A stretch of DNA of 19,790 bases from Candidatus Asbonarchaeum danakilense (lineage in GTDB: Archaea; Nanohalarchaeota; Nanosalinia; Nanosalinales; Nanoanaerosalinaceae): assembly GCA_034190465.1 (NCBI GenBank), contig JAXINV010000036.1, positions 28,658-48,447 of the forward strand, written 5' to 3'. Position 1 is the stretch's first letter, and the number at the start of each line of letters is the position of its first letter. The notes under the pieces were generated by a model. It saw only the letters and a program-made list of their open reading frames with translations, was not told where the DNA came from and did no database searches. A program made the position numbers and the translations under genes. Positions 3,037 to 19,705 of this stretch are shown here, one piece after another.

Positions 3037-3618
3037 TCAGCCCTTGTACCGGCCGCGGGACGCTACCTCTTCGAGCCGCTCGAGCACCGATGCTCCGTCC
3101 TCGTACTGGTCCTGGTAGGCTTTCAGGATGGTGTCGAACGCTTCATCAGCCACAGCGGTGTGCGTCGATTCCAAGACCTGCCGCAGCAGCTGCAGATCGG
3201 TCGCCCGGTCCTCGACGCGCTGGGAGAAGAAGCCGAGCCCGAAGTCGATGAAGTACAGCTTGTCGCCGTCGAGCAGCATGTTCGATGTGGTTAGGTCGCC
3301 GTGGATGATGTCGCGGCCGTGCAGCCGCCCGATATCCTGCCCTATCCGGGGCCAGTCTTCCTCTCGCTCCTCGAAGATGTCGCGGAGCTTGGTGCCGTCG
3401 ATGAACGACATGGTGATCGTGTAGGTGTCCTTGTCGTGGACCTCGGGCACGCTGACACCTGCCTGCCGCGCCTTCTCCAGCAGCCGGGCCTCCTGTTCCG
3501 TCCGTTCCTGCCGCAGCGCGGTGTCGATCTGTGGGTGCCTGTAACCCTTGCTGATCCTTTCCTTGATCAGTCTGTCGCCCTCTCGGCGGAGAACGGCTTC
3601 TGCGCCTCGGTCGATCAT
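3037..3618 (-). CDS. bud32: KEOPS kinase/ATPase Bud32
   Basis: Start at ATG 3618 (MIDRGAEA), in a TGATG overlap with the upstream stop. Motifs GAEA, K.R..KGYRHP.ID, HGDLTTSN, IDFGL, ED.A.DL and C-terminal RGRY. Confidence 0.95.
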   Translation of the reverse strand: MIDRGAEAVLRREGDRLIKERISKGYRHPQIDTALRQERTEQEARLLEKARQAGVSVPEVHDKDTYTITMSFIDGTKLRDIFEEREEDWPRIGQDIGRLHGRDIIHGDLTTSNMLLDGDKLYFIDFGLGFFSQRVEDRATDLQLLRQVLESTHTAVADEAFDTILKAYQDQYEDGASVLERLEEVASRGRYKG

Positions 3619-5381
3619 CAGGAGTCCTCTTCCGCGATGTCTTTCCGGAAGTGTTTGAGGAAGGTGGGGCCGTACTCCAGCAGGACAAGGTCCTCTTCGC
3701 GGGACTCCAGGTACGCGAGTTCGTCCTCCCGTGCCTGCTGCAGTCCTTCGCTGTCGTTGATGTAGTCGATGATGTACTCGGAGGTTCGCTCGGCGGCCAG
3801 GAACTCGGGGAAGATGACGTAGTCGGCACCCAGGTTGTACAGCTCCAGTGCATCGTCGATGTCTTCGGCCCGGACGATGACTGGGAGATCCCAGTCCTTG
3901 GCGGCCTCGATGCACCGGATGTTGGCGTTCTGCATGGGCACGGTGGAAACGATCATGCGTGCGTCGTCGATGTGGAGGTCTTCGAAGTCGATGCTCTTGA
4001 TGTCGCCGTAGTAGGTCGCTGTCCCGGCTTCGCCGAGCCGACTGACGATTTCGACGTTGTAGTCAACGACGAGGACCTCGTGTCCGTGCTCTTGCAGGTG
4101 TTCGAGTACCTCCTGTCCCTGGACGTGGCATCCGACAAGGAGGATGTGGTCGGAGATGTCGTCGGGGATGTTGCTGTACTCCTGCATCTCTGTCGGTGTG
4201 ATGATCTTCCTGATGTCGATCAGGCTGTCGGAGAACAGCTCGTACATCCTGCGATGGTTCTTGTAGCTGTAGGAGGAGATGGTGATCGTGGTGATCGCGA
4301 TGCCGAGACAGAGGGCGAAGACGGTCTCGGAGATTGCCCCGACCATGAAGCCCTCCAGCAGGATGAAGAGGGAGAACTCGCTGACCTGGCCCAGGCCGAG
4401 CCCGGTGAGGAATGAGGTGCGCTGCCCGTACCCGTAGAAGCTCATCATCAGGTAGGTGAGGAACGGCTTTACCAGGATGACGAGGCCGGTGAACAGGAGG
4501 AAGGCGGCGAGGACGTCACCTATCAGCGGGAAGTTGACGAGGGCGCCGATTGAGACGAAGAAGACTGTGCCGAAGAAGTCACGCAGGGATTTGACCGAGT
4601 TCTTGACCTCGATACCGTACGGGAACTTTGTGAGGCTGATCCCGCCGGTGAACGCGCCGACGGCTAGTGGAAGGTTCGAAACGCTCGACAAGCCGAGGAA
4701 CAGGAATACTGTCGTCAACGCGGCGAAGATTGTCTGTTCGACGGACGGTTCCAGGTTGTTGAAGATCGTGAGGGTCACGTACCGGCTCGCAACAATGGCG
4801 ATGGAGAAGATACCGAGCGCGCTGATGATGGCTGAGAACAGGGGCTGGAGACCGCCACCGAGATTGGCGAGGCTGGAGATGGCGATGATTGCGAGGATGT
4901 CCTCGATGAGCAGGATGCTGACGATGAGCTTGCCGTGCAGGGTGTTGAGCTCGAATTTTTTCTCCAGTATATTGAGGACCTCCATGGTGGAGGAGAATGA
5001 GACGAACAACGCGATGTAGATGGCTGCGGTGCTGTTGAAACCGAGCCCATAGGCCAGCAGGAAAGCGACGATACCGACGATAACGGTGTGGCTGGCGCCG
5101 GCTGTGAAGATGGCCTTGCCGAGGCTCCGCAGCTCTTCGATGTCGGTCTCAAGCCCGGCGGTGAATAACAGGAAGATGATACCGAGCTCCGCCATGGTGA
5201 TGATGTCCGCACTGTTCTGGAGTAGACCGAGCACGTTCGGGCCGAGAAATATCCCTGCGACGATGTAAAGCGGGATGCTGGGCTGGTCAAGCTTCTTCCC
5301 GATGTACAGTAGCACCCCTGCGGCAATGAAGACGGCTGCAAGATTATGCAATAGTGATGTAACTGCGCCTGCTGCACTCAC
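3618..5381 (-). CDS. Kef-type cation:proton antiporter (CPA2) with C-terminal RCK/TrkA-N domain
   Basis: Many TM helices; LGIIFLLFTAGLE, SFSST, LLIEDI, LRDFF..VFFVSIG, LGQVSEFS; RCK domain HILLVG...VVDYN...YGD...LYNLGADYVIFPE. Confidence 0.92.
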   Translation of the reverse strand: MSAAGAVTSLLHNLAAVFIAAGVLLYIGKKLDQPSIPLYIVAGIFLGPNVLGLLQNSADIITMAELGIIFLLFTAGLETDIEELRSLGKAIFTAGASHTVIVGIVAFLLAYGLGFNSTAAIYIALFVSFSSTMEVLNILEKKFELNTLHGKLIVSILLIEDILAIIAISSLANLGGGLQPLFSAIISALGIFSIAIVASRYVTLTIFNNLEPSVEQTIFAALTTVFLFLGLSSVSNLPLAVGAFTGGISLTKFPYGIEVKNSVKSLRDFFGTVFFVSIGALVNFPLIGDVLAAFLLFTGLVILVKPFLTYLMMSFYGYGQRTSFLTGLGLGQVSEFSLFILLEGFMVGAISETVFALCLGIAITTITISSYSYKNHRRMYELFSDSLIDIRKIITPTEMQEYSNIPDDISDHILLVGCHVQGQEVLEHLQEHGHEVLVVDYNVEIVSRLGEAGTATYYGDIKSIDFEDLHIDDARMIVSTVPMQNANIRCIEAAKDWDLPVIVRAEDIDDALELYNLGADYVIFPEFLAAERTSEYIIDYINDSEGLQQAREDELAYLESREEDLVLLEYGPTFLKHFRKDIAEEDS

Positions 5382-7099
5382 TGGTTCAGAACCTCGTAGA
5401 GCCGGCTTTTATTGACTTTTTCTTGCTGCAGTTTCTCGCGATGCTGCTCGCGGATGTCGTCGAGCGTTGACGGGTCGTCCATCGCATCGTCGATGAAACC
5501 GGCGACCTTCTGGGCGGAGAGCATGTCGGGGAAGATGACGTAGTCTGCGCCGTGATCGTACAGTTCCAGGGCGGTGTCGATGGATTCGGCTTTGACGACG
5601 CAGGGGACGTCATGTTTCTTCGCCTTGTTGATGATCAGCTTGGTGTCATCCACGCTGGGGATGGTGGAGACGATGAGTTTAGCCCGGTGCAGTTTGATGT
5701 CGTTCCGTGCCTTCAGGTCGCCGATGTCGCCGTATACCGCCTGATGCCCGTGTTCAAGCAGGTGTTCGATGATATGTGGGTTGTAGTCGACGACGAGTAC
5801 GTCCTCCCCTTCTTCTTCCAGGTTGTCGAGGATCTGGTGGCCCTGGACGTGGCTGCCGACAAGCACGACGTGCTCATCCATCGACTCAGGCCGGAAGGAA
5901 AGTTCGTTGATGTTGCTCGGTTCCAGACGTGTTATATGAGGTTCGAAAATATCGTAGAGCCGTTTGCTGTAGCTTATGAAGTAGCTGGATGTCCCGATCG
6001 TGATCAGGCCGGTCATTGTCATCAGGGCGATGGTCTCCGGGCCGATGTGGCCCAGCGATGCGCCCAGTCCGACGAGGATGAACGAGAACTCGGAGATCTG
6101 TGCCAGTGAGATGGCGGACATGAAGCTGGTCTGGACCGAGTAGCGCAGCCGGTTGAGGCTGACGAAGATCGTGACGAACTTGACCGCTATGACGAGCACG
6201 GAAAGCAGGAGCGCCGGGATGATAACAGCCTGCATCGCTCCCATGGTCAGCTGGAGGCCGAGTGATGCGAAGAAGAAGGCGACGAACACGTCGGTCAAGG
6301 GCCGGACCCGTTCTTTGAGCTCCTGATTGTAGGGGAGCTGCGCCAGGCTGAGTCCGGCGAGGAAGCCGCCGATCTCCAGGGACAGCGACGCCGCCTCGGA
6401 AAGGGTGATCAAGACCATGAACCAGCCGATGCTGGCGACAAGGAAGGATTCCTCGGATTCGGCGAAGACGCTGAACATCCGCGGAAGCACGTACCGTGCA
6501 GCGATCAATGTTCCTCCTACTATCGCGATGCCGAGGCCTGTCGTCTCGAGGAGCCGGAGACTGGTTGTCCGGAATCCGAGCCCGATGTTCGGGCCGAGGG
6601 TCGAGAGGGCGGCAAGGATGAAGATGACGGCAATGTCTTGGACCAGCAGGACGCTGACATTGATCCGGCTGTACAGCTTGTCCATCTCCTCTTGCTCCTC
6701 CAGTATTTTGACAACGACGACGGTCGAGGAGAACGTCACTGCTATGGCGACGTAGATGGCGTCGAGCAGCCCCATCCCGAACCACCAGGCGATGAGATAG
6801 GTCAGTGCCCCTGTAGCGATCATCTGGGCGGCGGCGACGATGAAACCAGTCCTGCCGATGTCCCGCAGCTCGCTGAGGTCGATCCTGAGCCCGACGAGGA
6901 ACAGGAGGAAGGAGACACCGAGCTTGGACAGTGTCTCGATGAAGAGATGGTTCTCGATCGCCCCGAGCACGGGCCCGAGCACGATACCGGCGATGATATA
7001 GGACAGCACGTTCGGCTGACCGATCCAGCTGCCGACGACGGTGAAAACGGTGACTGTGGCGATGAGGATACCGAGATCGAGCATCAACGGTTCAGTCAT
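5378..7099 (-). CDS. Kef-type cation:proton antiporter (CPA2) with RCK/TrkA-N domain, paralog
   Basis: LGVSFLLFLVGL, FSSTVVVVK, LLVQDI, FFASLG, LAQISEFSF; RCK domain with GADYVIFP. SD GAGGTGA 6 nt before the ATG. Confidence 0.92.
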   Translation of the reverse strand: MTEPLMLDLGILIATVTVFTVVGSWIGQPNVLSYIIAGIVLGPVLGAIENHLFIETLSKLGVSFLLFLVGLRIDLSELRDIGRTGFIVAAAQMIATGALTYLIAWWFGMGLLDAIYVAIAVTFSSTVVVVKILEEQEEMDKLYSRINVSVLLVQDIAVIFILAALSTLGPNIGLGFRTTSLRLLETTGLGIAIVGGTLIAARYVLPRMFSVFAESEESFLVASIGWFMVLITLSEAASLSLEIGGFLAGLSLAQLPYNQELKERVRPLTDVFVAFFFASLGLQLTMGAMQAVIIPALLLSVLVIAVKFVTIFVSLNRLRYSVQTSFMSAISLAQISEFSFILVGLGASLGHIGPETIALMTMTGLITIGTSSYFISYSKRLYDIFEPHITRLEPSNINELSFRPESMDEHVVLVGSHVQGHQILDNLEEEGEDVLVVDYNPHIIEHLLEHGHQAVYGDIGDLKARNDIKLHRAKLIVSTIPSVDDTKLIINKAKKHDVPCVVKAESIDTALELYDHGADYVIFPDMLSAQKVAGFIDDAMDDPSTLDDIREQHREKLQQEKVNKSRLYEVLNQ

Positions 7100-10662: not shown

Positions 10663-10941
10663 TTAGAGCTGGTCCTCTATCGCGTCCGGGAGCCGTTCCT
10701 CGCCGCTGTACTCCTCCCCGAGCGCGGTCGCGATTGTCGAATAGGCGACAGGGCCCGTGAGGTCGTGGTATGCCTCGACGAGCTTTGTGATGATCTCGTA
10801 TCCGTCTCCCGTGACCTCGGTCACAGTCCCCTCTTCATCGATCTCCAGGCCTTCAATCTGGCGGGGAGGACCCTCCGCTGCCTCGCCCATCAGGTTCTTC
10901 TGGGACTGGATGGTCGCGGTGATGAGATCGCGATAGCTCAC
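10663..10941 (-). CDS. Small acidic hypothetical protein, partner of the FIST protein
   Basis: 92 aa, GTG start 8 nt after the FIST stop; acidic composition like the real genes; helix - beta hairpin (GLEIDEEGTVT) - helix pattern. Confidence 0.8.
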   Translation of the reverse strand: MSYRDLITATIQSQKNLMGEAAEGPPRQIEGLEIDEEGTVTEVTGDGYEIITKLVEAYHDLTGPVAYSTIATALGEEYSGEERLPDAIEDQL

Positions 10942-10949
10942 GGTGCTCG

Positions 10950-12107
10950 CTACCTGCTGCCGATGCCCTGTATTGAGATGGTTTCCTCATGGAACATCCC
11001 GTTCCCACCGCTCATAGCTATCTGGCCGAAGCCGTACAGTCCGATGATGCTGGTCCCTTCGCCAAGTTGTTCATGGACGCGCTGCACTTCCTCTTGTGTC
11101 AGCTCAGGATCGTCATAGATCGCGTCCCGTCCCACGCAACTGAACACAAGGGCGGCTTCGACGTTGCCCGTGCCGCCGAGCTGGTCCGCAACGGAACCGG
11201 AGGCGCTCGCGGCCGCGTCGAGCAGGTCTTCTTTCTGCCCCATCATGATATGGACCTCGTCGCCCTCTGGGACGCTTGCCCCACACGCATAGCACCCTTT
11301 TTCATCGACGTCGAGTGTCACACGGAGCATGTATTCATCCTCACCTTCAACATCGAGACCGAACGGCGTCATAAGAAGGAATGCAGGATCTTCAGATTCG
11401 CCGTCTCCGAATATCTCCGCATAGACCTCCTGCGGCGGACGTCCCTCCAGTTCTTTGACGACGTTCGTATCTGATTCTGTCACGGTGTAGCTGTTCGGTG
11501 TTGGCTGGAATCCATGGGCCTTGTCCGTGGCGATTTCCCGATCTGTCGACACCGCAACACAGATGACAGCGTCTTCATGTGCTTCACCGTTATGGAAGAC
11601 GTGGGTGTGTTCGAATTCCATGTTGTCGGCCGCGAACTCTCCTGTTATCTGGACATCTCCGTCTGCCGCCCTGTTGACCCCTGCGAGCATGTCCACCCCT
11701 GTCCCGTGGAGAGGGTCTGAGAGCACGGTGAGGAACGTGTTCTTCTTTTCGTCAACGCCGCCGAGCGCTTCACTGGCAGCTCCATATCCTGCCTCCTCAC
11801 TACCTTCCTCAAGACCGGTCCTGAACCCGACATGTGCGTGTACATCGTCCCCGCCGATGGCCAATGCGACCACGCTCTCCTTTTCCGGTCCGTCGGGTGT
11901 TATCTCGATCATGCTGGAGCAACCGGCAAGCGGCACCTCCTCGAGCTGTTCGTCCGCTGCCGAAAGCAGGGCATCAAGGTCGTACTGAGAGGAGGCAAAG
12001 AAGTATACAAGTTTCGGGTCGTCGATCCCGGAGAGGGCCTCTTCGACAGCTCCGGCTCCGGCTTGTGTTGCGTCAGACCGGGAGGATGTACCGACTGCGG
12101 TCTCCAT
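10950..12107 (-). CDS. Stand-alone FIST (FIST_N + FIST_C) sensory domain protein
   Basis: A..A.EEAL....PKLVYFFASSQYD, LAGCSS..EI, HGFQP....TVTES..NVVKEL.GRP, ALVFSCVGR, GLYGFGQI. ATG 12107 follows SD GAGGTGA with 5-nt spacing. Confidence 0.88.
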   Translation of the reverse strand: METAVGTSSRSDATQAGAGAVEEALSGIDDPKLVYFFASSQYDLDALLSAADEQLEEVPLAGCSSMIEITPDGPEKESVVALAIGGDDVHAHVGFRTGLEEGSEEAGYGAASEALGGVDEKKNTFLTVLSDPLHGTGVDMLAGVNRAADGDVQITGEFAADNMEFEHTHVFHNGEAHEDAVICVAVSTDREIATDKAHGFQPTPNSYTVTESDTNVVKELEGRPPQEVYAEIFGDGESEDPAFLLMTPFGLDVEGEDEYMLRVTLDVDEKGCYACGASVPEGDEVHIMMGQKEDLLDAAASASGSVADQLGGTGNVEAALVFSCVGRDAIYDDPELTQEEVQRVHEQLGEGTSIIGLYGFGQIAMSGGNGMFHEETISIQGIGSR

Positions 12108-12138
12108 GGAGATCACCTCTTTCTTATCTGCATCGGCG

Positions 12139-12145
12139 ATATAAA
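12139..12145 (-). promoter_or_regulatory. TATA box for the FIST/small-protein unit
   Basis: TTTATAT within AATAATTTATAT on the minus strand, between the PIN stop and the FIST SD. Confidence 0.55.
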
Positions 12146-12156
12146 TTATTGTCGGG

Positions 12157-12537
12157 TCACCGGAGGCGCGCGGCCTCCAGGTGGTTCTCCTGCCTGAGGT
12201 AGATGTGCGGCAGCTCCTGCTCGTCGAGCTGCTGCCGGACCTCGGTGTCGTTGGTGCAGATCACGAAACCGTGCTCGGCGAACGTGACCAGCTGATCGTC
12301 CACTGACTGGTCTGCCGGGGCGTTGATGACGTGGATATCCTTCAGGTCGACGAGACGGTCCACGAGCTGGGCGTATTCGCCGTCCTCCAGGTTGATAGCC
12401 TCGTTCAGGGTCCGATCCAGGGTGTGGGCGGTGTAGCCGGCACCGACCAGCCGCTCGAATTCGTCGAATATCTCCACGTTGAACTGGAACGGGAGGACGA
12501 GGAAGTTGGCGTCCAGCAGCAGATCGACTGTCATCAT
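12157..12537 (-). CDS. PIN domain protein (Fcf1/Utp24-like, normally downstream of aIF2gamma)
   Basis: LLLDANFLVLPFQF.V.IF.E, E at helix 2, VDD.L, VICTND, IYLRQ. The true start may be the second ATG (12534). Confidence 0.9.
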   Translation of the reverse strand: MMTVDLLLDANFLVLPFQFNVEIFDEFERLVGAGYTAHTLDRTLNEAINLEDGEYAQLVDRLVDLKDIHVINAPADQSVDDQLVTFAEHGFVICTNDTEVRQQLDEQELPHIYLRQENHLEAARLR

Positions 12538-12641
12538 CTATCACCTTCAGGCGGTCCGCATCGCAGCCCGTCTCTGGGTGCTGCCTGCTCGCAGCAGGCG
12601 TGGACGAGGAGGCCGCCGTCGAGCAGGAGGTGTGGCTGCAT
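12534..12641 (-). other. 35-aa small ORF or PIN-like remnant (MQPHLLLDGGLLVHACCEQAAPRDGLRCGPPEGDR)
   Basis: ATG 22 nt downstream of a TATA-like element; stop overlaps the PIN start (ATGA); N-terminus resembles the PIN N-terminus. Confidence 0.35.
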
Positions 12642-12663
12642 GGGAGTTACTCTGTGCGAAGCC

Positions 12664-12670
12664 TATTTAT
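12664..12670. promoter_or_regulatory. Candidate bidirectional TATA element
   Basis: TATTTAT/ATAAATA lies 22 nt from minus-strand ATG 12641 and 23 nt from plus-strand ATG 12694. Confidence 0.45.
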
Positions 12671-12693
12671 GTGTGATCGTGGAGGTACAGTGC

Positions 12694-13650
12694 ATGCGCG
12701 AGCGACGACTGGTCTCGTTTAGCATGCTCGACGGCGACCACGAACAGTTGATGTACGAGCGCGGTTCTGGAAGCCCGACGGTCCTGGTGGTCGGCGGCAT
12801 CCACGGCGATGAGACGCCTTCCATCCAGGTGGCTCAGTGGTGCCGTGACAGGCTTGATAGTGTTGACGGCACGCTCAACGTGATACCGGAGGCCAACGTC
12901 TTTGCCTGTAAGGAAAACACCCGTGACACCCCTTGGCCGAAGTACGAGGACCACGAGAGTGAGGAACGGAACATGAACAGGTGTTTTGAGGCTGCCAGCA
13001 GGAAGATCAGAGGAGAAGACGTATCGCTTAACCTAACGGAGAGTATGGCAAAAAGCGTGCTGGAGCAGGCGCTTGCTGCGGACTATGTCATCGATCTCCA
13101 CACTGCGACATGGCCTGACAAGAAGCTTCCGCAGACACGCATCAAGGTCGATGAGGCGTTTGATGGGGCGACGGTCGCTGAGATGGAACGGATGGCCATG
13201 CATGCCGGCCTTTCTACGGTCCTGAAGATGCATCCGGGCGAGATAGGCGGGGGTGTGCTTGCGGCTGTCGCACCGAAGCATGGTGTGCCGGCGGTCACCC
13301 TGGAGATAGGCGGTGCCAGTCACTTCGATGATGAGGACCGGGTTACGTATACACGGACGGTGGAGAACATCCTGGCCTATCTAGGGGTTGTGAGCAGTGA
13401 GCCGGAGCAGGGACGCGTGGAGTTCTACCAGGGGATACGCACGGTGTACACGTCTGAGACGGGCGTGTTCCAGCCTCGCGCAGATATCGGTGATGTCGTG
13501 GAAGAAGGCGACGTGCTTGCGCAGGTGCGGGGACGGGATGGCACACCCGAGGAACAGGTCAGGGCGCCTGTGACGGGTACCGTGGAATCGTTGAACCGGA
13601 AAAGGGTGGTCAACGAGGGCAGTAGAGCCGCCAAGATAGTGCATAACTAG
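12694..13650 (+). CDS. M14 family succinylglutamate desuccinylase/aspartoacylase-type Zn hydrolase
   Basis: GGIHGDE (Zn His/Glu), NMNRCF, DYVIDLH, TLEIGG (catalytic Glu), and a C-terminal biotinyl/lipoyl-like barrel (GDVVEEGDVLA...VRAPVTG). Start ATG 12694 after SD GGAGGT. Confidence 0.88.
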   Translation: MRERRLVSFSMLDGDHEQLMYERGSGSPTVLVVGGIHGDETPSIQVAQWCRDRLDSVDGTLNVIPEANVFACKENTRDTPWPKYEDHESEERNMNRCFEAASRKIRGEDVSLNLTESMAKSVLEQALAADYVIDLHTATWPDKKLPQTRIKVDEAFDGATVAEMERMAMHAGLSTVLKMHPGEIGGGVLAAVAPKHGVPAVTLEIGGASHFDDEDRVTYTRTVENILAYLGVVSSEPEQGRVEFYQGIRTVYTSETGVFQPRADIGDVVEEGDVLAQVRGRDGTPEEQVRAPVTGTVESLNRKRVVNEGSRAAKIVHN

Positions 13651-13672
13651 CCGCTCAGAGGCTCGCCCAAAC

Positions 13673-13680
13673 CTTAAATA
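13673..13680 (+). promoter_or_regulatory. Putative TATA box for the DUF1611-like gene
   Basis: CTTAAATA 28 nt upstream of ATG 13709, followed by a short inverted repeat ATTGC-N5-GCAAT (13680-13694). Confidence 0.45.
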
Positions 13681-13708
13681 TTGCACCGGGCAATGGAGTG
13701 GTGGATCA

Positions 13709-14746
13709 ATGCGTATGAACTATGATTACAAGGCCTCTGTTCTGAAACGGATTGAACTGGATGATGACGTAGACGTGGAGAAAAGCGGTCACAAGCCTCA
13801 GAGCGGGGATGTTGTGGCGGTACGTATAACCGAGAAACGGGGCAACTACGGAGAGGTCGACCTTCCTGGCGGTGAACTGGAGGAGCTTGAGGAGGGGGAT
13901 ATTGTTCTGGGAGCGTTCGGAAACCGTGCAGGGGTCAAAGGATATATAGGACGGGTTCCGGACCGGATTGAGAAGAGCGATGACGTGTTCTTCATTGGGT
14001 CGGGCGGTATATTCGGCGAATACGTCAGTGCCACGAAGGAACTCGGTCTGCCGTACAGAGCAGAGTTTCTGGGGTATGTAGCGGAGGATGACAAGATACT
14101 CAACACGAAGGAGTATGGAATCGACCACCGCGATGAACTGGGTGAGGAACCGCGGCTGTTGCCTGTGGTTGCGACACGGATGGACGCTGGGAAGACCACG
14201 GTAGCCTCAGAGCTTATCCAAAAACTGGATGGGCGTGGCTACAAGGTGGGTTCCGTCAAGCTGACTGGGTCTGCCAGAGAACGTGACAGGGTGAGTATGT
14301 ACGACGCCGGCTCGCTTGTCTCTTTGGACTTCGTGGATGCAGGACTGCCGTCCACTGTCGAGGACCCGGACGAGGTCATCGACGCGGCGAAAGGCCTGAT
14401 CCACGAGGCGTGGAATGCTGAGGACGTGGACATGATCGTCGCTGAGTTCGGTGCGGGCGTTATCAGTAATTACCATGTGATGGACGTTCTCAAAGATCTT
14501 GATGTCCGTAAAACGGTTTTTGCCATCGCATCGACTGCTCTGGATGTTTCAGGAGCATATGGCCTGAAGAAGATCCTCCAGGAGCAGGATTATGAGCTTG
14601 ACATGGTCTGCGGACCGATAACAGACACGACAGCCGGTGTTGAGAAGGTCGAGGACAGTGTCGGCGTCGAGGCGCTGAACGCGTTCCGTGACGAAGACAT
14701 GGAAGAAGCGGCGAACATCATTGAAGAGCGGTTTGAGGAGCTATAA
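13709..14746 (+). CDS. DUF1611-like P-loop protein
   Basis: N-terminal beta domain (P..GDVV.V...GD.VLGAFGNR...GY.G.VP...GG..G), P-loop-like ATRMDAGKTT, KLTG....D...M.DAG.....DFVDAGLPST, IVAEFGAGV. Family recalled from motif pattern, not from a search. Confidence 0.65.
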   Translation: MRMNYDYKASVLKRIELDDDVDVEKSGHKPQSGDVVAVRITEKRGNYGEVDLPGGELEELEEGDIVLGAFGNRAGVKGYIGRVPDRIEKSDDVFFIGSGGIFGEYVSATKELGLPYRAEFLGYVAEDDKILNTKEYGIDHRDELGEEPRLLPVVATRMDAGKTTVASELIQKLDGRGYKVGSVKLTGSARERDRVSMYDAGSLVSLDFVDAGLPSTVEDPDEVIDAAKGLIHEAWNAEDVDMIVAEFGAGVISNYHVMDVLKDLDVRKTVFAIASTALDVSGAYGLKKILQEQDYELDMVCGPITDTTAGVEKVEDSVGVEALNAFRDEDMEEAANIIEERFEEL

Positions 14747-15640
14747 TCCTTCCTCGGACTGTTTTTCAACCGTCTTCTGCTTGATGAAACGCATGACCTC
14801 TTCTGCCAGGTCAAGCCCCAGAACTTCTTGGACGCCGGCGACGCCCGGTGACATGTTGATCTCGCCGATGTGGTAGTCGCCGTCTTCGTTGACCATGATG
14901 TCGACGCCGCAGAAATCGAACCCACAGAGCTTGCTGGCCTGGACGGCTATCTCGCGCATATCCTCCGGCGCGTCGTATTCCTCTCGGGAGCCGCCTGCTG
15001 AGATGTTCGACCGCCATTCTTCCTCCCCGCCGACTCGCTTGTAGCTGTACGTCTTGTCTCCAACGACCACTATCCTGACATCTTCTCCAGGATTTTCGAC
15101 GTACTCCTGGAGGCAGATATCTTGTTCGAACAGTGTAAGCGTGTCGATGATGGGACTGAGGTCTGATTCGTTCTCGGCTTTCATTATACCTTTGCCGCCG
15201 TATCCGGATATCAGTTTGATGACCACAGGATATCCGAGACGCTCTGCGAACCGTTCCGTCTCCCGTGTGGATAACGTGTAGGTTGATACGGGAACGGGGA
15301 GACCACCTTCGGCCAGTACTTTCATTGAGTAGAACTTGTTCGATGCTATTGCCAGCGAGTCCATGTCAAGCTGGGTATAGACCCGGTGGTTCCTCAGTAT
15401 CTCTGGTATATGTTCGCCGTAGAGCAGATCGTCTCCCAGGAACCGGGTCAGGACGCAGTCGAAATTGCAGAGATTGGTATCCTGGTACATCAATCGGGTG
15501 TCGCCGTCCTCATAGACCGTCCGAACATTCTCCAGAGGGACCCCCAGCACGGTTTCGAAGTGTTCTTTGCCTGCCTCGATGAAATGATGGTGCTGGGCTG
15601 ACTTTTTACCATATATAACCGCGCATTTAATCGTTATCAC
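14741..15640 (-). CDS. RimK/LysX family ATP-grasp alpha-L-glutamate ligase, catalytically intact
   Basis: NKF....LA..GLPVP.T, YPVVIKL.SGYGGKG, LQEYVENPGEDVRI.VVG, WRSNIS.GG, GVD and EIN.SPG motifs. Start uncertain (GTG 15640 or ATT 15631). Confidence 0.9.
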   Translation of the reverse strand: MITIKCAVIYGKKSAQHHHFIEAGKEHFETVLGVPLENVRTVYEDGDTRLMYQDTNLCNFDCVLTRFLGDDLLYGEHIPEILRNHRVYTQLDMDSLAIASNKFYSMKVLAEGGLPVPVSTYTLSTRETERFAERLGYPVVIKLISGYGGKGIMKAENESDLSPIIDTLTLFEQDICLQEYVENPGEDVRIVVVGDKTYSYKRVGGEEEWRSNISAGGSREEYDAPEDMREIAVQASKLCGFDFCGVDIMVNEDGDYHIGEINMSPGVAGVQEVLGLDLAEEVMRFIKQKTVEKQSEEGL

Positions 15641-16442
15641 CTCGAAGAACTTCTGAAACGCGTCCATACACGTTTTTACCGCTCTTTTCTTCAAAGTAGT
15701 TGAGTTCGGGCCTGTTTTCTACGTCGAGCACGGTTGTTCCAACAAGTTTAACCCGGCATATCTTCGTCCCTATCGACTGCGCGGTATCCTCGAGGATTTC
15801 CTGTTGTTCGGTGGAGAGATTGTGGTACTGGGGGTTGCTGGCCGACCCATCAGGCCAGTTGTCCCTGTCGAGCTTCAGGGCGATGACCTCGCCGTTCAGG
15901 TAGAGCGCATCGTAGATGTCTTCTTCCTCCATCTCCTGGACCAGGGTGACGTGTGTACCGTGTTCCGAATACTCAACCATGGAAGATATCTCATCCGTGC
16001 TGTTCACCAGGGAACGTTCCGCTTCTTTGAATCCTTCGTATGTGGTGACCAGGGCGGGGAAGTCGATGGTTTCTTCGATGTTGTTCAGTCCCTTGGCGGT
16101 CGATATGGCGACGGTGGACGGGATGGCGATATCCTTCTCTGTCAGTACCTTGAACAGGTAATGCTTCTTCGCCATGATAAAGAATGCAGTCGGATTGAGG
16201 TTGCAGGGGATGCGGTGCTCTTGGATGGTCTCCAGCAGGACGCGGGCATAGATAGCTGCCTTGGGCTCTGGGTCTAGGTAGACGCTATCGTATTCCTCTA
16301 GCGGTGTGCCTTCGACTTCCACATCGGCTGTTTCTCCTGTCTCGATACCGATGTCAGCGAGGGAGTGGCGTTCCACGTCTTCAACGTAATCCTCGAATCC
16401 TGCGGCCTCATCTTTGTCATTCGTCAGTACCAGTAAATTCAT
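15627..16442 (-). CDS. Degenerate RimK-like ATP-grasp protein
   Basis: Keeps the RimK scaffold (YDSVY..P, N...F....KK......L....IAIPST, IDFPALV, LVQE) but lacks K.xxGxxGxG, DxR, RxN and ExN. ATG 16442 follows SD GGAGGTGA and overlaps the MscS gene end by 26 nt. Confidence 0.75.
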   Translation of the reverse strand: MNLLVLTNDKDEAAGFEDYVEDVERHSLADIGIETGETADVEVEGTPLEEYDSVYLDPEPKAAIYARVLLETIQEHRIPCNLNPTAFFIMAKKHYLFKVLTEKDIAIPSTVAISTAKGLNNIEETIDFPALVTTYEGFKEAERSLVNSTDEISSMVEYSEHGTHVTLVQEMEEEDIYDALYLNGEVIALKLDRDNWPDGSASNPQYHNLSTEQQEILEDTAQSIGTKICRVKLVGTTVLDVENRPELNYFEEKSGKNVYGRVSEVLRGDND

Positions 16443-18012
16443 CGAGTTTTTTCTCACCTCCCTCAGGCGAGTTGTCGGCCTTCCAGACCCGCTGTACTCG
16501 TTCTTCTCTGCGCCACCGGCCGAGGAAGTCTTCGACAGTTTCCGGCATGGCGTTCTTTAGGATACGGCCTCTCCGCAGGATACGACCGAGCTGGAGTTCA
16601 AGGCTCTTACTGAGCTGGTCGTAGACGTTGGAGTCGGAATAGATCAGCCCCTCCTTGATACGCCAGTAGGCGGTGGTGCCCTCCGGCGCCATGATGATGT
16701 AGCCGCGTTTCCTACCTTCCCATTCAGACATGGCGTCGTACATCTCGCTGTTGTCGACATAGTAGACGCCGCCGGACATCGTGTGGGCGCTTGGGTCGAC
16801 TATCAGTATCTCTTCGCCCTCGACGCCCACGGAAAGGGAGTAGTGGCCGGTATCCGCCTGGGGGAACAGCAGGGGCTTTGCGAAGTTGACGACTACGAGC
16901 CCTCCGTCGTTGAACCAGGTCTTCAGCTCTTCTGCCAGGTCGGTTATCTTATCGTATTCGACGAACTCTGCCTTGACTTTGCCGTTGGTCCGGCTCTCGA
17001 TGGCCTGGATTAGGTCGTCGGGCTGGACGCCGCCTGGCTGGCTGGTCCCGGATTCTTCGGCCAGTGTGCCCTGGTTCAGGTCGTAGCCGAACATGGCCAG
17101 CGCCATCTCTGCTGAGGCGGGGCCACAGTAGGATGGTTCCTGCGCGACAAAGTAGTTCTTGATATCTTCCAGCGTCTCGACGTCGGCCTTGACCCGTTTG
17201 AACATGATATCGGTGTCCATCAGTTCCTTGTTCGGCTTCAGCATGAAGTAGCCTGAGTCGGTGGTTATCGTGGTGCTGAACCCGGAGATCTCGCGTATCT
17301 CGCCTGATTCGCCGTCGAGCTTCACCTTCTTACCTGGCTTCAGGATGTCTGAGCCACGCAGATAGATGCCTGCGGCGTAGTTCTGCACTAGGTCCTTGAA
17401 GCCGAAGAATGCCAGTGCACCGAGCAACGCCACGAGGCCGTACGATGCGGCTGTCAGGGTGTTAGCTATGATGTCGGAGGAATAGACGCCCATCTGGATG
17501 ATGGCGATTTCCAGGACGACGAGGTAGAGGAACGCTTTCAGGCCGTGGAGGAATGCCTCAGCAACCTTGATGGAGAATCCGAGGTCTTTGACGTATTCTT
17601 TAAATCCGACGGTGTCGATGAAGGCGTTCAGAAGGTTCATCACCAGCTTCACGACGATGATGCCTAGGAAGAATATGAGGACGGAGGTGAGCGCGGCGGG
17701 CAGATAGGTCGACAGCTGGCTGTACAGCTGGCTGGTGACGGAGGAGTTGAGATAGAGGAGAGCCAACCCGATCGTGGTGATGGAGCCAAGGTATTCGACG
17801 TATTTGACCGGATGGTTTTTTCGCTGCTTGATTTGTTCGATGATTTCGTCCGGCTTGTATGCATTATAGGCGCGCTTGAACACACGGCTGATCAATCTGC
17901 TCAACAGGAAGCCAGCAAGCAGGATTGTGAGGGTTATACCTATCTTGATGCCGGTGGGTTGCTGGATGAGCATCGAGGCGAATGCTGAGAGCTGTTGAAG
18001 AGAGGTAGCCAT
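16417..18012 (-). CDS. MscS-family mechanosensitive channel fused to a papain-fold phytochelatin-synthase/C39-like domain
   Basis: N-terminal TM helices; MscS TM3 and beta domain (GFKDLVQNYAAGIYL...KPGKKV...GESGEIREI....T.I.T..G....PN..L); then AQEPSYCGPASAEMAL, TGHYSLSVG, ILIVDP, YDAM....GRKRGYII. Confidence 0.85.
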   Translation of the reverse strand: MATSLQQLSAFASMLIQQPTGIKIGITLTILLAGFLLSRLISRVFKRAYNAYKPDEIIEQIKQRKNHPVKYVEYLGSITTIGLALLYLNSSVTSQLYSQLSTYLPAALTSVLIFFLGIIVVKLVMNLLNAFIDTVGFKEYVKDLGFSIKVAEAFLHGLKAFLYLVVLEIAIIQMGVYSSDIIANTLTAASYGLVALLGALAFFGFKDLVQNYAAGIYLRGSDILKPGKKVKLDGESGEIREISGFSTTITTDSGYFMLKPNKELMDTDIMFKRVKADVETLEDIKNYFVAQEPSYCGPASAEMALAMFGYDLNQGTLAEESGTSQPGGVQPDDLIQAIESRTNGKVKAEFVEYDKITDLAEELKTWFNDGGLVVVNFAKPLLFPQADTGHYSLSVGVEGEEILIVDPSAHTMSGGVYYVDNSEMYDAMSEWEGRKRGYIIMAPEGTTAYWRIKEGLIYSDSNVYDQLSKSLELQLGRILRRGRILKNAMPETVEDFLGRWRREERVQRVWKADNSPEGGEKKLDEFTGTDE

Positions 18013-18046
18013 GTGTCCCCACACCGGTATTAAGCACCGGCCGTGG

Positions 18047-18054
18047 TTTATATA
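18047..18054 (-). promoter_or_regulatory. TATA box and BRE for the MscS-fusion/ATP-grasp operon
   Basis: TATATAAA preceded by purine-rich GGGAAAAGG on the minus strand, between the aIF2gamma stop and the MscS-fusion start. Confidence 0.6.
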
Positions 18055-18084
18055 CCTTTTCCCTTTTAAAGCCGTTCTGTGGTT

Positions 18085-19299
18085 TTAGCCGTCGCTGATG
18101 ACTCCGTGGCCGATGAGGCGCCATCTTGCACCGATTCTACGTGAGATGGCGACGCGTTCACCTGGTTCAGCGCATATTGGACGTTTCAGCTGCACCTTGA
18201 CGGTGTCGCCTGCTTGGGTGACGACCCCTGACGTCTTGGCCGTCCCGACGTTGAGGAGGAGGGCTTCTTTCTGCTTGATATTCTCGATCTCTTTCTCCTC
18301 CTCGCTGCCGACGACGCGCTCCATTAATGTGACGTCCATGGAGAGCTGTTCCCTGACGTCCGGCAGCTCGCCCTTCCGACCGAGCACGTTGCCGGCCAGG
18401 TTGTCGGACTTGGTCATGGAGGGATCAAGCGCGGTCTCAACGCCGAGCAGTCCGCCGGGCGTGCCTTTCTCCACCTGCTGGTCGCCCTGGATGATGCTCT
18501 GGACCTCGGTGACGACGGTCTCCCACGTTTCCTCGTCGCGGTTGACGCCGGGCCTGAGTTCGATCTCGTCACCTTCCTCGAGCTCGCCCTTGATCAGGCT
18601 GCCGCCGACGACCCCGCCTTTGAGATCTTCTGCAGCTGTCCCTGGCTTGTTGATGTCGAAGCTCCGAGCGACAAGCATCTTTGGCGGTGCTTCGTTGTCC
18701 CGCTCCGGTGTCGCGATCCGTTCCTGGATCGCTTCGATGACTTTGTCGATGTTGACGCCGTGCTGGGCGGAGACGGGGATGATCGGGGCGTCCTCTGCGA
18801 CGGTGCCGTCGATGAACTCTTTGATCTGCTGGTAGTTCTTTTTTGCCTCCTCTTCGGAGACGAGGTCGATCTTGTTCTGGACGATGACGATGTTGTCGAT
18901 GCCGACGATGTCCAGTGCCTCGAGATGCTCACGGGTCTGAGGCTGCGGGCAGTCTTCTGCAGCGGAGATGAGAAGCAGGGCTCCATCCATGATGCTGGCG
19001 CCTGACAGGACGTTGGCCATCAGTGTCTCGTGTCCGGGTGCGTCGACAAGGGAGACGGCACGCAGTACCTCGGTGTCGCCACCGCACTCGCATTCGTCGT
19101 TGATCGTGTATGTGTCGCATTTGGTGCACTGCCGCAGGACGATGTCGGCGTAGCCGAGCCGGATGGTGATGCCTCGCTTCAGCTCTTCCGAGTGCTCGTC
19201 CGTCCATTTGCCGGAGAGGGCGCGCGTCAACGTGGTCTTGCCGTGGTCGACGTGCCCGACGAGTCCGATGTTGACCTCAGGGATTGGGTGGTCGGCCAT
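18085..19299 (-). CDS. eif2g: Translation initiation factor 2 gamma subunit (aIF2gamma)
   Basis: [29 protein letters not shown], Cys zinc knuckle, [28 protein letters not shown]. Start placed at ATG 19299. Confidence 0.97.
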
Positions 19300-19306
19300 G
19301 GCGTTT

Positions 19307-19705
19307 CTACTCACCGCCCTCTTCGTCGTCCTGTTCGTCACCGTGGAGCAGTTCGTCGATGCTCTTGTCGCCTTCCTCGACGACGGTGCAGTTCAGCTGG
19401 GCGATGTCGTCGGCGACGGTGTTGCCACGGAGTGATTTCCGCTGTCTTTCGCCGTCTTCAAGGTCGCGGACGCCGGTGCCTTCCTCGACGAGGATCCGTT
19501 TCCGACCGGTGCCCTGGAGCTGGCGCTTCATGGGGAAACCGTCCTCGTCGCTGCCACCGGTGATCTCGAGGGTGTAGCCGTCGAGACCGACCGCGGAGCC
19601 GTCGAACGTGTCGCCGACGCTGAGGCCCTGCACGGTCTGTTCCTGGCTGTCGTCGAGTTCGAAAGAAGTGGTTGTTCCGTCTGTCGTACCGACTACAAGT
19701 TGCAT
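19307..19705 (-). CDS. rps6e: 30S ribosomal protein S6e (eS6)
   Basis: [46 protein letters not shown]. Confidence 0.96.

Follow-up and report, generated by a model that had tools for sequence, protein, structure and literature searches.

A conserved nanohaloarchaeal locus with an MscS-peptidase fusion, a RimK-family ligase, its degenerate paralogue and exchangeable partner genes

Introduction

RimK-family ligases with ATP and glutamate motifs are known in the company of a trimming peptidase from the RimK-RimB system of Pseudomonas (rimABK) and from E. coli RimK, and RimK is reported to produce free poly-alpha-glutamate as well (PMC11957791). RloABC of Pseudomonas aeruginosa combines an ATP-grasp protein with a polyglutamate-cleaving peptidase and a membrane protein bearing an enzyme-like domain, and its mutants are described as failing under hypo-osmotic stress (PMC11957051). 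The prokaryotic phytochelatin synthase (PCS) Alr0975 of Nostoc (PF05023) cleaves the C-terminal glycine off glutathione (PMC3855540). In this study, we analysed computationally a locus at positions 12694..18054 of a 19,790-nucleotide stretch of DNA (the window; C3:28658-48447) from the nanohaloarchaeon Candidatus Asbonarchaeum danakilense, whose genome (G000) is 1.2 Mb in size and 92% complete; those relatives of its proteins that carry a name are Nanohaloarchaea. The locus encodes an MscS-type membrane protein fused to a PCS-like cysteine peptidase, a RimK-family ligase, a degenerate RimK-like protein and two further proteins. It is a real, conserved variant of the ligase-plus-peptidase systems, new in its channel fusion and in its swappable types.

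In contrast to rimABK, the loci mapped here contain neither RimA nor RimB (no rimB adjoins rimK, in a search that covered the loci rather than whole genomes), carry a dead RimK paralogue and have no bacterial S6, and the predicted eraser is a membrane-tethered cysteine peptidase, an M14 enzyme or a MATCAP peptidase. RloB has seven transmembrane (TM) helices and an inactive periplasmic transglutaminase domain, and RloA is a secreted aspartic peptidase (PMC11957051); the protein studied here has an MscS-type membrane part and a PCS-like enzyme domain that is predicted to be cytoplasmic. That domain is collinear with Alr0975 and shares with it the Gln-Cys-His-Asp residues, the N-Y/F strand and the RG-aromatic motif, but it is fused to a channel-type protein and is dead in half of the phylum. 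With the MscS family, which includes minimal channels of 171-174 amino acids (PDB 9seh, 9bgu), the membrane part has TM3b and the beta-domain in common, whereas additional TM helices are present and the cage domain is replaced by the peptidase. A sequence-only reading of the window had supposed that no system with this combination had been described, and none was found in the literature that we searched, from which subscription journals are largely missing. The work of Iyer et al. 2009 on amidoligase operons may cover related gene neighbourhoods.

Results

A fixed trio and a variable slot

Three genes of the locus, namely those for the fusion, the dead ATP-grasp protein and RimK, occur in this order in 64 loci of Nanohaloarchaeota and lie behind rpS6e-aIF2-gamma wherever the contig reaches that far. 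The C-terminal half of the fusion was matched in 64 of 70 genomes from the phylum. In a set of 61 genomes, the queries for RimK and for the dead ATP-grasp protein matched 57 each, and those for M14 and the P-loop protein, which represent the two remaining genes, 16 each. Neither ATP-grasp query gave a match in four genomes that are 61-93% complete (G004, G010, G013 and G060); the locus of G003 is cut by a contig end, and G066 is without a fusion match. The exact five-gene set was found in seven genomes, all from the family of the window, with M14 cut by a contig end in one of them. The M14 query had no match in the same-genus genome G001 (93% complete), and none of the 10 P-loop loci in family f3 has an M14 gene. 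Thus, the core consists of the trio, the locus can do without M14, and the plus-strand arm represents one of several contents of a variable slot. The sequence-only reading had treated the five genes as one unit, which these counts contradict, while its proposed co-occurrence check showed the genes together far beyond chance. The features are as follows.

12157..12537, minus strand: PIN-domain gene, the fixed downstream flank of the slot (Pfam, gene maps)
12694..13650, plus strand: M14 zinc hydrolase of the AstE/AspA type, 318 amino acids (P0002), with a C-terminal barrel-sandwich domain; accessory slot gene (Pfam, motifs)
13709..14746, plus strand: DUF1611-like P-loop protein, 345 amino acids (P0003); type-defining slot gene (fold)
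14741..15631, minus strand: intact RimK-family ATP-grasp ligase, 296 amino acids from a probable ATT start (Pfam, TIGR00768, motifs, start-codon survey)
15627..16442, minus strand: degenerate RimK-like ATP-grasp protein, 271 amino acids (P0005) (TIGR00768 E 8e-4, motif loss, complex model)
16417..18012, minus strand: MscS-type membrane protein fused to a phytochelatin-synthase-like cysteine peptidase, 531 amino acids (P0001) (Pfam, model, Foldseek, profile search)
18047..18060, minus strand: putative BRE/TATA-like motif 5' of the fusion gene, matched by eye to the archaeal consensus
18088..19341, minus strand: aIF2-gamma, the fixed upstream flank of the cassette (Pfam, gene maps)

All five open reading frames of 12694..18054 are present, uninterrupted and single-copy in G000. 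The minus-arm genes overlap one another, and the convergent arms share 6 nucleotides (14741-14746), each stop codon lying inside the last codon of the opposite gene. This layout and the composition of the minus arm had been read correctly from the sequence, as shown by the open reading frame, Pfam and TIGRFAM analyses, and so had the aIF2-gamma and PIN flanks. To describe the genes as inserted between them misrepresents the minus arm, whose place behind aIF2-gamma is constant throughout the phylum. Positions 11500-19260 are spanned by one 8.4-kb contig of run X1, and as X1 may be the source sample of this DNA, that contig argues only against a mis-join. The GC content of the region is 0.52-0.56 compared with about 0.60, too mild a dip to be taken as a sign of insertion. 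A sigma-70 scan, a method unsuited to archaea, returned no promoters and one terminator-like site against 4.1 expected.

The state of the catalytic triad of the peptidase divides the loci into types. We scored 62 loci, leaving out three loci from non-halophiles, the second half-locus of G009 and all loci in which the triad columns were missing, and found the triad intact in 31 and dead in 31. Catalysis by a peptidase at the channel can therefore not be universal. Among the intact loci, 17 carry the P-loop gene, 13 a GCS2 gene and one (L059) neither; none of the 31 dead loci carries either gene. Conversely, a MATCAP gene occupies the slot in 20 of the 31 dead loci and in none of the intact ones; seven dead and six intact loci end before the PIN gene. 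In genome-wide searches the P-loop gene was present in 19 genomes and the cassette GCS2 in 13/70, never in the same genome, and MATCAP was present in 27/32 dead-type and 9/32 intact-type genomes, G000 being among the latter. The slot thus comes in types, in which an intact triad pairs with P-loop or GCS2 and a dead triad with neither. From their mutual exclusion and from the fold of the P-loop protein, it seems that these two unrelated enzymes may fill one role.

Exchange of the cassette between genera

A species-proxy tree of five flanking markers requires 13-14 changes of triad state, and in 11 of 12 independent pairs the state agrees with the presence of the partner. The gene trees (53 rows) give a different picture, with 11 changes on the tree of the TM part, 9 on that of the beta-domain, 5 on that of the dead copy, 2-3 on that of RimK and 1 on that of the peptidase domain. 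RimK, the dead copy and the peptidase domain cluster by type, and the membrane part clusters by species. Congeners of different type (L039 and L068) have markers that are 83% identical and RimK proteins that are 42% identical, while for L039 and L041, from different genera, the figures are 63% and 77%. Approximately unbiased (AU) tests, run with quick LG+G4 trees on 25 of the rows and for groups picked after the trees had been viewed, rejected all five within-genus groupings on the RimK tree (p <=1.4e-4). The simplest reading is that whole blocks have been replaced between genera, the breakpoints falling within the fusion gene. Taken alone, the peptidase tree could be a product of relaxed selection; the RimK tree is the stronger evidence of exchange. 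It follows from the gene trees that the correlation of triad state and partner stems from a few co-adapted haplotypes and not from eleven origins; repeated co-evolution, as which the 11 pairs might have been read, was rejected on these grounds.

The fusion protein

The fusion exceeds the Pfam cut-offs for PF05552, PF00924 and PF13529. Residues 1-275 form TM helices and the MscS beta-domain, the peptidase extends from about 280 to 445, and a conserved helical tail follows; its structure model (pLDDT 85.6, pTM 0.57) shows TM helices, beta-domain, papain-like domain and helical tail. TM3b and the beta-domain align with E. coli MscS (E 3e-12) and 9seh (6e-10). By Pfam and by the model, the MscS alpha/beta cage domain is absent and the peptidase directly follows the beta-domain. 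No acidic tail is conserved at the C-terminus.

The PCS-like nature of the peptidase, already suspected from the sequence, is borne out by profile, fold and the residues Q291, C296, H390 and D406. A sequence search of the PDB with the single domain gave nothing significant, and the relation came from profiles and folds: Alr0975 was the top Foldseek match, followed by PeiR and MscS, and in a profile search it scored E 3e-10, the next match having 0.005. The domain alone reaches 25.5 bits against the Pfam phytochelatin family PF05023 (cut-off 24.9), and the whole protein 21.8. At the second-substrate site, R173 of Alr0975 corresponds to K379 and K206-Y207 to Gly-Gly in the profile alignment (residues from PMC3855540), so that this site is conserved only in part.

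RimK and its degenerate partner

RimK scores 122 bits against PF08443 and 157.6 against TIGR00768 (cut-off 143.4), and retains the ATP-grasp catalytic motifs (two Lys, Gly loop, D-x-R, RSN and E-x-N). It falls under the cut-offs of the equivalog models for RimK sensu stricto (118/331), LysX (120/276), CofF (77/300), MptN (143/350) and GshB (67/272). Equivalents of R64, R189 and N262, which are reported to bind poly-glutamate in Pseudomonas RimK (PMC10092738), are kept. The translation start is most likely ATT 15631, which overlaps the upstream TAA, and not TTG 15694: ATT occurs in 12/65 loci at the position where 46 have ATG, and in L034 no in-frame ATG, GTG or TTG follows the preceding stop. 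This probable non-canonical start sits two genes behind aIF2-gamma. The core RimK is present a second time in L032 (G015) and L045 (G027), next to M14 and MATCAP.

The second ATP-grasp protein has no Pfam match and reaches TIGR00768 at E 8e-4; in all cassette types it has lost the second lysine, the glycine loop and the D-x-R, RSN and E-x-N motifs. Modelled as a complex with RimK it gave a score of 0.87 (best control 0.01), with runs agreeing in at least 97% of contacts and a partner pLDDT of at least 87; the mark for this score is reached by 51/78 solved complexes and 2/108 mismatched pairs. The dead copy is thus probably a partner subunit of RimK, judging from the model, whose score may mirror likeness to solved RimK homo-oligomers. 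The LysW carrier was matched in 0/5 genomes tested (controls matched in 4/14) and the F420 ligase CofE likewise in 0/5 (controls in 3/14).

The slot genes

The P-loop protein consists of an N-terminal beta-domain and a SIMIBI-type P-loop domain with a Walker A GKT at 161-163 (model pLDDT 94.5). A sequence search of the PDB gave nothing significant, so that profiles and folds were needed. In structure comparison, its C-terminal domain aligns with a DUF1611 protein (Z 18.6, 2.5 A, 178 residues), dethiobiotin synthetase (Z 16.9, 2.9 A, 180) and DgcN (Z 16.4, 3.0 A, 183; 13% identity). All of its nearest folds are small-molecule enzymes or proteins without known function. The label DUF1611-like is therefore right for the fold of the C-terminal domain (PDB 2g0t, 2obn, 7xrj; Z 16.4-18.6), but there is no Pfam match to DUF1611 (PF07755), identity is 10-13%, and the N-terminal 98 residues are unaligned. 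Foldseek did not have DUF1611 structures among the matches listed, whereas the VIA comparison did give them, and some distant relatives of the protein carry PF07755. DgcN, a D-glutamate N-acetyltransferase according to its PDB title, had been named in the sequence-only reading; the P-loop protein is not an orthologue of it. The look-alikes of the P-loop protein are bacterial and mostly unnamed. One homologue (L166:5950-7011) belongs to a gene cluster on a Priestia plasmid, where ATP-grasp genes and an M20 peptidase flank it. The cluster also contains thiamine pyrophosphate (TPP) enzymes and a phosphoenolpyruvate (PEP) mutase-family gene and presumably resembles a phosphonate-peptide cluster; two other homologues are not so placed.

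The M14 protein was correctly assigned to the AstE/AspA type: it scores 85.7 bits against PF24827 (cut-off 25) and has the H37-x-x-E, N-R, H136 and E204 motifs. It falls under all equivalog cut-offs. Other fillings of the slot are GCS2, MATCAP, YheC/D-like ATP-grasps and a third RimK, and every alternative occupant is again an amide-bond ligase or hydrolase, including N-formylglutamate amidohydrolase. The glutamate and peptide-bond chemistry that had been proposed is sustained to this extent, albeit not for a unit of five genes.

Related genes are found elsewhere as well. In G000, a MATCAP (PF08014) peptidase gene directly follows rpl10-rpl12 (C4:12650-13765) and may be an unlinked part of the system; a canonical GCS2 ligase (C40:3794-4840), which G001 has as well, bears no relation to the GCS2 of the cassette. 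In G042 and G020, a long GCS2-like gene and an M14-like gene form a separate pair (L169:2777-5055 and L170:1183-3286).

Occurrence outside Nanohaloarchaeota

The fusion forms about 45 full-length clusters at 50% identity, one of them named from Iainarchaeota. Among 401 genomes of Nanoarchaeota, whose members are not independent and which include the unpublished G432 (with both genes) and five other unpublished genomes, the fusion occurs in 20 and RimK in 223, among them 18 of the 20; RimK is found without the fusion in 205/381. We know of no bacterial S6 in these 223 genomes. In about 130 of the 401, the match is confined to the membrane part and the beta-domain and falls in open reading frames, mostly of 175-260 amino acids, that encode minimal MscS-like proteins. 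In five loci inspected, the nanoarchaeal RimK adjoins a RimB-like aspartic peptidase. The linkage to aIF2-gamma does not extend beyond the phylum. Two loci from non-halophiles again combine the trio with N-formylglutamate amidohydrolase: L164, in which the triad is dead, and L165, which has an intact triad and a third RimK. A MATCAP search of five Nanoarchaeota genomes gave no match, but the controls were silent too.

Neighbouring genes

Two Kef-type K+ transporter genes lie downstream at 3618-7099 of the window, and in relatives (L021 and others) TrkA/TrkH and a second MscS-like gene lie upstream of rpS6e and the cassette, a neighbourhood that, if we assume these labels to be right, reads as potassium or osmotic. 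A FIST-domain (NosP-like) gene and a 92-amino-acid partner (10663-12116, minus strand) sit between PIN and a pyrophosphatase gene; this pair was not seen at the same position in relatives.

Discussion

The explanation that we favour, and to which we give about an even chance, is a cytoplasmic cycle that builds and trims a short N-capped or gamma-linked glutamyl peptide, a small molecule, at an MscS-type pore. In this cycle, the slot enzyme would make the primer, GCS2 by forming a gamma-glutamyl amide in one type and the P-loop protein in the type of the window. A hetero-oligomer of RimK and its dead copy, as suggested by the complex model, would extend the primer, most likely with glutamate. 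The PCS-like domain at the cytoplasmic face would then bind the peptide and clip or transfer its C-terminal residue, by analogy with Alr0975, and in the types with a dead triad the MATCAP peptidase associated with them would usually take over. M14 would remove the cap, and the pore may either be regulated by the peptide or release it. As the trees show, everything between the peptidase domain and the slot, both included, moves between genera as a block. Support for such a cycle comes from the fixed overlapping trio, the likeness to Alr0975, the split of partners by triad state, the mutual exclusion of P-loop and GCS2, the nearest folds of the P-loop protein, the glutamate-site residues of RimK, the complex model, and the return of the trio beside N-formylglutamate amidohydrolase outside the phylum; transcription of a locus with this gene order, described below, also speaks for it. 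A small molecule is favoured because most of the partner families act on N-acyl or gamma-acyl amino acids and because no carrier or cofactor pathway was found.

Several observations weigh against this cycle. Its substrate and product are inferred. As the cassette is exchanged as a block, the correlation of triad and partner is largely linkage, and the few state changes on the RimK tree point to few independent origins. It is not evident that RimK has retained the S7/R8 glutamate contacts of the Pseudomonas enzyme, its closest solved relatives are bS6 ligases (E 2e-29), which act on protein tails, and MATCAP peptidases do so as well. Two dead-type genomes (G018 and G020) have another GCS2-like gene elsewhere. 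Outside Nanohaloarchaeota, the triad is intact in 27 of 28 fusion locus rows (some genomes counted twice), most loci hold a solitary fusion gene, searches of the fusion genomes gave 0/21 for the P-loop family and 5/21 for GCS2, and G147 and G070 have the fusion with RimK not matched; the coupling is therefore limited to Nanohaloarchaeota.

The nearness of RimK to bS6 ligases is also what makes a reversible modification of protein tails worth considering, although we judge it rather unlikely. RimK and its dead partner would then glutamylate the C-terminus of a ribosomal protein, a translation factor or the channel, and the peptidase, M14 or MATCAP would erase the mark, a toolkit that parallels RimK/RimB and the tubulin code. 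MATCAP/TMCP enzymes are reported to trim acidic tubulin tails (PMC10499314), RimK is frequent in Nanoarchaeota and nearly always present alongside the fusion there, with a RimB-like neighbour in the loci inspected, and in G466 RimB-RimK converge on the fusion. The locus lies inside a string of translation genes, eukaryotic CDC123, an ATP-grasp protein, binds eIF2-gamma (PMC4431377), and among the roughly 1305 proteins of a crude gene call for G000, 27 have Glu-Glu at the C-terminus. A role directed at aIF2-gamma is retained only within this explanation, and the loss of that link outside the phylum speaks against it, as does the lack of a conserved acidic tail on the fusion. GCS2, N-formylglutamate amidohydrolase, AstE/AspA and PCS are, moreover, small-molecule enzymes, and a protein target would presumably tolerate poorly the swapping of ligase types within genera.

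Two further explanations are less probable again. The ligases could be GshA and GshB of a glutathione or gamma-glutamylcysteine metabolism, whose thiol the PCS-like domain turns over or senses to control the channel; we consider this quite improbable. In the GCS2 type, GCS2, ATP-grasp and PCS-like domain do form a coherent set, the canonical GCS2 elsewhere in G000 would suit it, and the only paper to put a name to such genes labels SVXNc_0869-70, beside an MscS gene, 'GshAB' (PMC10266531). However, the window ligase stays under the GshB cut-off but passes the RimK model, 49 of the 62 scored loci have no GCS2, and the second-site residues of PCS differ. Loose linkage, that is, a minimal MscS with a tethered peptidase next to a RimK operon with neighbours that are simply carried along in a slot prone to recombination, seems to us similarly improbable. 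It would account for the solitary fusions and the many RimK genes without a fusion in Nanoarchaeota, and block exchange can yield correlations without shared chemistry. Yet the break inside the fusion gene means that the peptidase domain travels with RimK, all slot genes are amide ligases or hydrolases, and the trio recurs in L164 and L165.

The build-and-trim cycle also admits a bolder form, which we put forward tentatively and think rather unlikely: the cage of the pore would be a ring of PCS-like domains that senses, trims or exports a glutathione-like oligopeptide, whose chemistry is switched by cassette swaps between genera in the manner of a serotype locus. If so, the peptide would matter in contact with host or virus.

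The comparison calls the published 'GshAB' label into question, and it predicts functions for the MATCAP homologues of archaea and for an uncharacterised P-loop family that is found mostly in bacteria. Cultured strains with the locus exist. In one with the same gene order, on which rather than on sequence the orthology rests, the locus is transcribed, the channel gene at 3484 RPKM and aIF2-gamma at 3506 (PMC10266531 Table S1). Three features are open to direct tests: the channel whose cage has given way to an enzyme, RimK with a dead partner, and GCS2 and the DUF1611-like protein as unrelated enzymes that may fill one role. These organisms are ectosymbionts with genomes of about 1 Mb, and nearly all of them keep the module, of which several versions circulate across genera.

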